Source: Escherichia coli
Lineage (GTDB): Bacteria > Pseudomonadota > Gammaproteobacteria > Enterobacterales > Enterobacteriaceae
NCBI RefSeq assembly: GCF_013315695.1
Contig: NZ_CP054353.1
Reading direction: 5' to 3' (one strand)
Length of the DNA stretch: 64,000 nucleotides
The position numbers and the translations under genes are program-made. The notes under the pieces were generated by a model. That model did not search any database, had not been told where the DNA came from, and saw only the letters and a program-made list of their open reading frames with translations. Shown here one piece after another: positions 35,260 to 35,436 of this stretch. The first letter of the stretch is position 1. Every line of letters starts with the position of its first letter.

Positions 35260-35275
35260 TGTGATTCAGATCACA
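35260..35275. promoter_or_regulatory. CRP-binding site (TGTGAttcagaTCACA) in the mtlA promoter region
   Basis: Perfect CRP half-sites at canonical spacing. Confidence 0.5.
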
Positions 35276-35376
35276 AAAACTCAACAAACTAACAAAACAA
35301 AAATGTGACATTACTCACATTTAAATGCCATTTTTAGCGAAAATCGCCGCCTTGTTGCTTTTTTACACAAGAGTTT

Positions 35377-35392
35377 TGTGATGCACATCACG
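35377..35392. promoter_or_regulatory. CRP-like site (TGTGAtgcacaTCACg) in the mtlA promoter region
   Basis: Near-consensus CRP palindrome. Confidence 0.45.
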
Positions 35393-35420
35393 TCAATTAC
35401 CTCTCTACCCCCTATATTTA

Positions 35421-35436
35421 TGTGATTCATATCACA
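35421..35436. promoter_or_regulatory. CRP-binding site (TGTGAttcataTCACA) in the mtlA promoter region
   Basis: Perfect CRP half-sites about 145 bp upstream of the mtlA ATG. Confidence 0.5.

Follow-up and report, generated by a model that had tools for sequence, protein, structure and literature searches.

The CRP site array of the mtlADR promoter-operator in an Escherichia coli chromosome segment

The region 35217-35436 of the window, the whole 64-kb stretch of Escherichia coli DNA analyzed here, is very probably the array of CRP sites (CRP1-CRP5) of the E. coli mtlADR promoter-operator, with transcription from about 35487. Judged by its sequence, the array is to be read as an activator array and an operator at the same time, the ternary MtlR-CRP-DNA complex having been shown on the K-12 and Salmonella operators. 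The array, its sites and its MtlR-docking role are already known: the sites have been mapped in K-12, and the MtlR operator has likewise been published, the docking role in July 2026 (Lee et al., 2026, NAR, PMC13421365). The first-pass annotation of this DNA was thus right to describe the cluster as not novel. The system is a textbook-grade case in which the spacing of the sites of a global activator, and not a repressor-specific sequence, gives an operator its specificity, and the comparative spacing result reported below is an independent check of the published MtlR-CRP model. In addition, the 73-bp gap between CRP3 and CRP4 and three islands in the spacers are also constrained, which the 2026 model does not yet explain.

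Sites and genes of the yibI-mtlA region

The CRP sites, compared with the consensus TGTGA-N6-TCACA, and the genes around them are given below by coordinates, strand and identity; site centres are numbered relative to the transcription start.

35217-35232, no strand: CRP1, CATGCTGCAGATCACA, weak distal site with 3 mismatches (7/10 consensus bases), centre -262.5, 43 bp from CRP2
35260-35275, no strand: CRP2, TGTGATTCAGATCACA, 0 mismatches, centre -219.5, hub of the predicted distal MtlR-docking pair
35304-35319, no strand: CRP3, TGTGACATTACTCACA, 0 mismatches, centre -175.5, 44 bp from CRP2
35377-35392, no strand: CRP4, TGTGATGCACATCACG, 1 mismatch at the final base, centre -102.5, 73 bp from CRP3
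35421-35436, no strand: CRP5, TGTGATTCATATCACA, 0 mismatches, centre -58.5, promoter-proximal, 44 bp from CRP4
33542-34678, minus strand: yibH, annotation transferred from isolate AF3
34681-35043, minus strand: yibI, annotation transferred from isolate AF3
35580-37493, plus strand: mtlA, mannitol PTS EIICBA, 637 aa, intact, A473E and E476V relative to K-12
37588-38736, plus strand: mtlD, mannitol-1-phosphate 5-dehydrogenase, 382 aa, intact, Q103L relative to K-12
38736-39323, plus strand: mtlR, repressor docking on paired CRP dimers, 195 aa, 100% identical to K-12 MtlR

The three sites that had been noted in the first pass (CRP2, CRP4 and CRP5) are all present, two of them perfect and one with a single mismatch, but the count of three was too low, since the perfect site CRP3 and the weak site CRP1 had been missed. 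The accompanying figure of about 180 bp upstream of mtlA agrees with the length of that cluster, which spans 177 bp, but not with its distance from the gene, as these three sites lie 144-320 bp from the mtlA ATG at 35580. The centres of CRP1-CRP5 in the window fall at 35224.5, 35267.5, 35311.5, 35384.5 and 35428.5, giving distances of 43, 44, 73 and 44 bp.

The annotation of E. coli isolate AF3 (NZ_OZ547117.1) could be transferred to the window because positions 15040-55600 are 99.97% identical and collinear to it. A 561-bp segment around the cluster was matched in 5404 of 5426 complete E. coli genomes, and in every case the genes annotated under this match were yibI to one side and mtlA to the other. 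The earlier view that the region is intact is borne out, with MtlA, MtlD and MtlR all of full length. The two substituted residues of MtlA, 473 and 476, are presumably located in the IIB-IIA linker. The mtlA-mtlD spacer is without the 135-bp REP-like insert of K-12. Residues R167 and L178, which contact CRP according to Lee et al. (PMC13421365), are present in the MtlR of the window. The locus thus combines pairs of sites 43, 44 and 44 bp apart (CRP1-2, CRP2-3 and CRP4-5) with a cognate MtlR and an intact EII-Mtl, which are the attributes of an MtlR-CRP operator. The window is an ordinary segment of the E. coli chromosome, in which the mannitol operon is intact and conventionally wired.

As cAMP-CRP sites, the members of the array have a palindromic core, an intergenic position upstream of a promoter that exceeds chance expectation and conserved recognition bases. 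Three perfect sites were observed in the 64-kb window, all of them inside one 177-bp stretch, and none of 100 dinucleotide shuffles reached three. The sole other site with at most one mismatch in the window lies at 1693, within xylR; the chance expectation for sites of this kind is about 1.9. The possibility that the sites are a chance cluster or a functionless remnant repeat is practically nil. The sites are indeed alike and show up as repeat families in a repeat search; however, only 0.03 perfect sites would be expected against the three observed, and a Poisson estimate puts the chance of finding at least three in the 536-bp intergenic region at about 4e-11. Conservation over 79 species is confined to the 10 consensus bases, the centres and spacers having been scrambled, and binding has been shown experimentally in published work.

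Agreement with the mapped K-12 sites and published binding

The K-12 centres of CRP1-CRP5 have been given as -262.5, -219.5, -175.5, -102.5 and -58.5, with distances of 43, 44, 73 and 44 bp (Lee et al., 2026, NAR, PMC13421365). According to the same paper, the five K-12 sites are to be credited to Figge et al. (1994), and Ramseier & Saier (1995) is also cited there, in another place. Comparison with these mapped sites and with CRP ChIP data had been proposed as a check in the first pass. All five published centres land exactly on sites in the window and give one and the same transcription start, 35487. Similarly, two CRP ChIP-seq peaks of ETEC H10407 lie in the spacer, and their sequences correspond to the K-12 forms of CRP2 plus CRP1 and of CRP5 plus CRP4 (PMC4287617), so that the mapped binding does overlap the coordinates of the cluster. 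Furthermore, the yibI-mtlA spacer formed the second most abundant class of CRP clones in genomic SELEX (PMC3105977), and the binding of cAMP-CRP to the four strong sites was shown on K-12 half-sites that are identical to those of the window (PMC13421365). Catabolite control of the mannitol operon, as assigned in the first pass, is therefore correct on the evidence of mapped sites, SELEX and ChIP-seq, but this assignment omitted the MtlR-docking role.

The same body of data bears on the question of which regulator the sites serve. Another member of the CRP/FNR family such as FNR, or Sxy-dependent CRP-S sites, would be an extremely improbable answer. Three of the sites do resemble the FNR consensus TTGAT-N4-ATCAA, at 2 mismatches each; however, this resemblance arises because the CRP and FNR consensus sequences overlap, and it is the outer half-site bases that are missed (G in place of the T in TTGAT and C in place of the A in ATCAA). 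The cores read TGTGA, with no TGCGA as in CRP-S sites, and the binding of CRP itself is directly documented (PMC13421365; PMC3105977; PMC4287617).

Alignment of the 536-bp spacer with K-12 gave 15 substitutions and no indels. Five of the substitutions fall inside CRP sites, all of them in the central N6 (one each in CRP1, CRP3 and CRP5 and two in CRP4), and none of the 50 consensus positions is changed. CRP2 is the same as in K-12, CRP3 differs at one central N6 base alone, and the segment 35443-35600, including the -35 and -10 elements and the leader, is the same as in K-12 throughout. The allele in the window is nevertheless rare, at least 99% identity being found in only 5 of the 5404 E. 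coli genomes. The K-12 mtlADR promoter-operator is thus the same locus, with the same five sites, the same 43/44/73/44 distances, the same 50 consensus bases and the same MtlR, from which the window differs by 15 point changes. Since no consensus base and no spacing differs and MtlR is identical, we infer that the regulation known from K-12 carries over to this strain, with binding and regulation transferred from K-12, ETEC and Salmonella.

Mutation of the chromosomal sites in K-12 has shown how unequal their contributions are. Expression of mtlD is lost in the CRP2 site mutant and expression is abolished in the CRP4 and the CRP5 mutants, the mutation of CRP3 results in a slight loss of expression, and CRP1, which is normally unoccupied, can be dispensed with (Lee et al., 2026, PMC13421365).

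Spacing, conservation and the MtlR-docking role

MtlR has no DNA-binding domain and cannot bind DNA (Lee et al., 2026, PMC13421365). In EMSA it supershifts CRP-DNA solely when two CRP dimers sit 43-46 bp apart; the 73-bp CRP3-4 pair does not bind MtlR unless it is shortened to 44 bp, the malK operator gains MtlR binding when it is re-spaced from 34 to 44 bp, and in the MtlR variants R167E and L178A binding is lost together with repression in vivo (PMC13421365). The docking model rests on EMSA, mutants and an AlphaFold3 model, and not on a solved structure (PMC13421365). These results count against the reading that the sites form a pure catabolite-activation array, in which they would only recruit RNA polymerase and MtlR would repress by another route. 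CRP dependence has long been established, activation requires three of the sites, and the geometry of activation alone might in principle account for the invariant spacing; however, the restriction of the supershifts to pairs 43-46 bp apart, the gain of binding by the re-spaced malK operator and the losses in R167E and L178A are joined by the comparative finding that 78 of the 79 loci preserve the 44-bp distances. A pure activation array is therefore a highly unlikely alternative to an array that also serves as an operator.

For the array as both activator and operator, the following sequence of events can be proposed for this strain from published experiments on identical half-sites. The four strong sites would be occupied by cAMP-CRP, with CRP2, CRP4 and CRP5 indispensable for activation and CRP3 of minor weight. 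A dimer of MtlR would bridge adjacent CRP dimers that are 43-46 bp apart, i.e. CRP1-2, CRP2-3 and CRP4-5, and would leave the CRP3-4 pair, at 73 bp, unbridged. According to the AlphaFold3-based proposal of the authors, the bridging MtlR may hide the CRP surfaces that are used by the RNA polymerase alpha-CTD. [quoted passage not shown] The far-upstream CRP sites would probably act architecturally and in a manner dependent on helical phase.

Related arrangements are known from other systems. As in the CytR-CRP system (e.g. deoP2), with which the mtl operator was compared by Lee et al. (2026, PMC13421365), MtlR is an anti-activator that is held by contact with two CRP dimers. However, CytR is a LacI-family DNA binder with its own operator between the CRP sites, whereas the specificity of MtlR comes from spacing alone. 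The CRP sites of deoP2 are about 53 bp apart, compared with 44 bp at mtl. The malE-malK cluster resembles mtl in having several far-upstream CRP sites, a role in sugar transport and a higher-order nucleoprotein complex, but the relevant sites of malK, at a distance of 34 bp, recruit MtlR only after re-spacing to 44 bp. The Salmonella and Vibrio mtl operators, like the window, carry adjacent CRP pairs 43-44 bp apart, whereas in the V. splendidus / V. ezurae lineage the geometry of the MtlR dimer has diverged and no ternary complex forms.

For the comparison across species, contigs from one genome per species were scanned with MtlA residues 1-200, which returned 80 mtlA loci, 79 of them with usable upstream DNA. 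The loci belong to Enterobacterales plus one Tolumonas, and the genera include Escherichia, Citrobacter, Salmonella, Klebsiella, Enterobacter, Kosakonia, Cedecea, Hafnia, Edwardsiella, Serratia, Rahnella, Pectobacterium, Providencia, Tatumella, Limnobaculum, Tolumonas and others. The four-site array is present in all 79 loci, with the following CRP2-3/CRP3-4/CRP4-5 spacings.

44/73/44 bp: 71 loci
44/72/44 bp: 4 loci
44/74/44 bp: 2 loci
45/74/43 bp: 1 locus (Tolumonas)
44/63/44 bp: 1 locus (Edwardsiella hoshinae)

Each of the pairs competent for MtlR is thus separated by 44 bp, or by a distance close to it, in 78/79 loci, and Salmonella enterica subsp. diarizonae shows the 44/73/44 spacing. The distance from CRP5 to the ATG varies in these 79 loci, spanning 131.5-185.5 bp, and the constant spacing of the array is therefore not a mere lack of indels. 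The 44/73/44 spacing has been kept without indels over at least 7 enterobacterial families, while the sequence of the spacers has been scrambled.

The conservation of bases follows the same pattern. In 66 dereplicated sequences, the major-allele frequency was 0.947 at the 40 half-site positions of CRP2-CRP5, against 0.52 in the N6 centres and 0.52-0.64 in the spacers. CRP2 is perfect in 57/79 loci, and CRP4 carries exactly 1 mismatch in 59/79, so that the mismatch of CRP4 in the window is typical. No site with at most 1 mismatch was found in 164 kb of adjacent coding DNA. Among 7 E. coli alleles, 1 of the 50 half-site columns was variable, compared with 11 of the 30 N6-centre columns and 16 of the 140 spacer columns, and none of the 153 columns of 35448-35600 varied. 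CRP1 is poorly conserved, with a half-site frequency of 0.56 (66 dereplicated sequences), and a CRP1-like site with at most 3 mismatches at the -43 offset is present in 37/79 loci.

The upstream neighbour of the array is yibI-yibH in 27 of the 79 loci and another gene in the other 52, where the array is kept all the same. As the array stays with mtlA where yibI is absent, it belongs to mtlA, and an assignment of the array to yibI as its main role was ruled out because the 52 loci without yibI keep the mtlA geometry. A separate proposal is that CRP1 and CRP2 control the divergent yibIH in addition, which would extend the reading as an mtlADR activator and operator array and not replace it. The ETEC ChIP-seq table gives the distal peak to yibI (PMC4287617), Shimada et al. 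note both genes downstream of the CRP-bound spacer (PMC3105977) and the CRP1-like site at -43 is commoner beside yibI (22/27 versus 15/52 loci; Fisher p = 1e-5). However, this association is confounded by phylogeny, both features being traits of Enterobacteriaceae, and 15 loci without yibI retain CRP1. Furthermore, the geometry of the array relative to the mtlA promoter is fixed in the 52 loci without yibI, the promoter scan gave no sigma-70-like promoter facing yibI, and the start codon of yibI is 181 bp away from CRP1. Additional control of yibIH is thus considered unlikely.

Promoter, Cra site and leader of mtlA

The position of the mtlA promoter was derived from the published CRP centres and from TGn plus a hexamer, which is conserved across families, resulting in the following features.

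35452-35457, plus strand: -35 hexamer TGGACA (inferred), 5/6 matches to TTGACA, at -35 to -30, 17 bp from the -10 hexamer
35472-35480, plus strand: extended -10, consisting of TG (35472-35473), one base and CAGATT (35475-35480), hexamer at -12 to -7 with 3/6 matches
35487-35579, plus strand: transcription start at 35487, implied by the five published centres, and 93-nt mtlA 5' leader
35459-35472, minus strand: Cra (FruR) operator-like site ACTGAATCGGTTAA, between -35 and -10, perfect match to RSTGAAWCSNTHHW

The hexamer TGGACA is conserved in Enterobacteriaceae, and other families, when aligned without gaps from CRP5 as anchor, have TGnTAGAGT either in the same column or in one next to it. A consensus promoter scan reported no plus-strand promoter, because the -10 hexamer CAGATT is too weak for its threshold; a weak -10 hexamer is as expected for an activator-dependent promoter. 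The start coordinate traces to S1 mapping of 1983, as relayed by Lee et al. (2026, PMC13421365).

CRP5 is likely to be the site that contacts RNA polymerase. It is not sufficient for activation, since the CRP2 and CRP4 mutants abolish expression too, and it is centred at -58.5, 3 bp off the canonical -61.5, so that simple class I activation is an incomplete description of this promoter. The authors classed the mtlA promoter as class III, and they reported that the far-upstream sites are required and suggested a dependence on helical phase (Lee et al., 2026, PMC13421365). Like class I and class III promoters (lac, and pap with its far-upstream site), mtlA has a proximal CRP site upstream of the -35 element and a weak -10; however, its proximal site is at -58.5 and not -61.5, its array doubles as a repressor platform and activation depends on three sites upstream of -100.

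Between the -35 and -10 hexamers, a Cra operator probably lies at 35459-35472, as judged from its match to the consensus. This consensus, RSTGAAWCSNTHHW, is reportedly the one described by Ramseier and co-workers in 1995, and the 64-kb window contains 4 matches to it against 0.64 expected. Cra has been reported to bind and repress mtlA (PMC13421365), and both Cra and CRP have been reported to act on mtlA from ChIP-exo data.

The invariance of 35448-35600 in E. coli and the antisense RNA MtlS of the V. cholerae mtl operon prompted a search of the leader for RNA elements. No Rfam match was obtained at E <= 1 in 34900-35800 of the window, which sets it apart from V. cholerae in this respect, and the fold of the mtlA leader is ordinary (z = -0.25). 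A structured or known RNA in the leader was ruled out on these two results. A terminator-like hairpin on the minus strand (35458-35444) is at chance level, 1 having been found against 0.7 expected.

The 73-bp gap and the islands in the spacers

The docking of MtlR leaves the invariance of the 73-bp distance between CRP3 and CRP4 without explanation. This distance is 72-74 bp in 78/79 loci and is as invariant as the 44-bp distances; in Edwardsiella hoshinae, the one other locus, it is 63 bp, i.e. ten bp or about one helical turn shorter. Phase-dependent remote activation has been the subject of speculation by the authors of the docking model (Lee et al., 2026, PMC13421365), and the spacing data, including the one-turn variant of Edwardsiella, agree with it.

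Three short islands in the spacers, outside the CRP cores, are conserved as well and keep their positions in the different enterobacterial families.

35251-35256, no strand: AAAATA, just upstream of CRP2, frequency at least 0.8 in 66 dereplicated species
35283-35288, no strand: AACAAA, in the spacer between CRP2 and CRP3, centred at about +18 bp relative to the midpoint of CRP2
35352-35364, no strand: TTG..G plus T-tract (T-tract 35358-35364), in the CRP3-CRP4 spacer, T7 columns at least 0.8

In 63 of the 79 loci, the motif ACAAA has an unchanged offset within the spacer. The place of the AACAAA island relative to CRP2 is about that at which the alpha-CTD docks beside CRP in the CAP-alpha-CTD-DNA structure, which may serve as a lead. 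It may tentatively be suggested that the four CRP dimers form a rigid, phase-locked nucleoprotein unit with extra docking or DNA-shape elements, which would go beyond the 2026 model, although this is a possibility to which we would give clearly less than even weight. Such elements could, for example, be places where the alpha-CTD makes contact, at some 19 bp from the centre of a CRP site, or where an undescribed factor binds. The AACAAA and T-tract islands are the two arms of an inverted repeat (I8), and the island with TTG..G and the T-tract is less conserved outside Enterobacteriaceae.

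Spacing and composition within the CRP array

The repressor MtlR, which bridges CRP dimers 43–46 bp apart, does not bridge the pair formed by the CRP sites CRP3 (35304-35319) and CRP4 (35377-35392) upstream of mtlA, although the distance between these two sites is nearly constant. The centres of CRP3 and CRP4 lie 73 bp apart in the window (gap 35320-35376), and the corresponding distance is 72–74 bp in 78 of the 79 species compared; the sole outlier is Edwardsiella hoshinae, in which the distance is 63 bp, shorter by exactly one helical turn. This narrow distribution, with its one exception a full turn away, suggests that helical phase constrains the CRP array as a whole.

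The 28 bp gap between CRP4 and CRP5 (35393-35420) carries a run of at least four C or at least four G in 50/79 species (C only in 30, G only in 18 and both in two), and such a run was found in the CRP2–CRP3 gap in just 2/79. The strand of the CRP4–CRP5 tract differs between families, either one being possible.

Only one further match to the CRP consensus with at most one mismatch occurs in the 64 kb window, namely TGTGAACATCTACACA at 1693-1708 within the coding sequence of xylR; chance alone predicts about 1.9 matches of this quality in 64 kb.

Conserved and variable positions upstream of mtlA

Three non-CRP islands are conserved across enterobacterial families at fixed positions.

35251-35256, AAAATA
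35283-35288, AACAAA
35352-35364, TTG..G followed by a T-tract

These islands may act as elements for alpha-CTD or Fis, or as DNA-shape elements. In addition, the AACAAA island and the TTG..G/T-tract island form an 85%-complementary inverted repeat with arms at 35275-35287 and 35352-35364.

Variation was assessed among seven E. coli alleles, in which the CRP half-sites are nearly invariant (1/50 columns variable). The central six bases between the half-sites (N6) are located as follows.

35265-35270, N6 centre of CRP2
35309-35314, N6 centre of CRP3
35382-35387, N6 centre of CRP4
35426-35431, N6 centre of CRP5

The N6 centres are variable in 11/30 columns versus 16/140 for the inter-site spacers (Fisher p = 0.002, calculated from a small sample of non-independent alleles). 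Furthermore, 35448-35600, which runs from the core promoter through the 93-nt leader into the opening codons of mtlA, has no variable column in these alleles (0/153), unlike the remainder of the yibI–mtlA spacer. No Rfam match to the mtlA leader region was found, nor was an unusual RNA fold (z = -0.25). The intergenic allele of the window (35040-35600) is rare, being matched at ≥99% in 5/5404 E. coli genomes, and nearly all of the remaining genomes match at 95–99%.

Differences from K-12 and the adhesin gene region

The mtlA–mtlD spacer (37494-37587) is 94 bp in length, whereas that of K-12 is 229 bp and includes an additional 135 bp palindromic (REP-like) insert that the window strain lacks. 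The genes yibF and yibH are separated by only 70 bp (33472-33541), whereas K-12 contains an RhsA element of ∼8 kb at this position, with rhsA, yibA, yibJ, yibG and pseudogenes.

The closest genome is that of the blood-culture isolate AF3 (NZ_OZ547117.1), and the adhesin region contains the sole 1 kb block with less than 99.5% identity to it. Annotation of the first two features below was transferred from this 99.97%-identical genome.

40872-41569, IS1A element
41589-41981, truncated SadB/YajI-family lipoprotein pseudogene
42025-47025, YadA-like trimeric autotransporter adhesin gene (5 kb), between yibL and lldP

The adhesin gene contains a tandem repeat (43311-44378) with 4.2 copies of a 255 bp unit at 98% identity. 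According to the transferred annotation, the IS1A element adjoins the pseudogene, and both (40872-41981) lie directly upstream of the adhesin gene.
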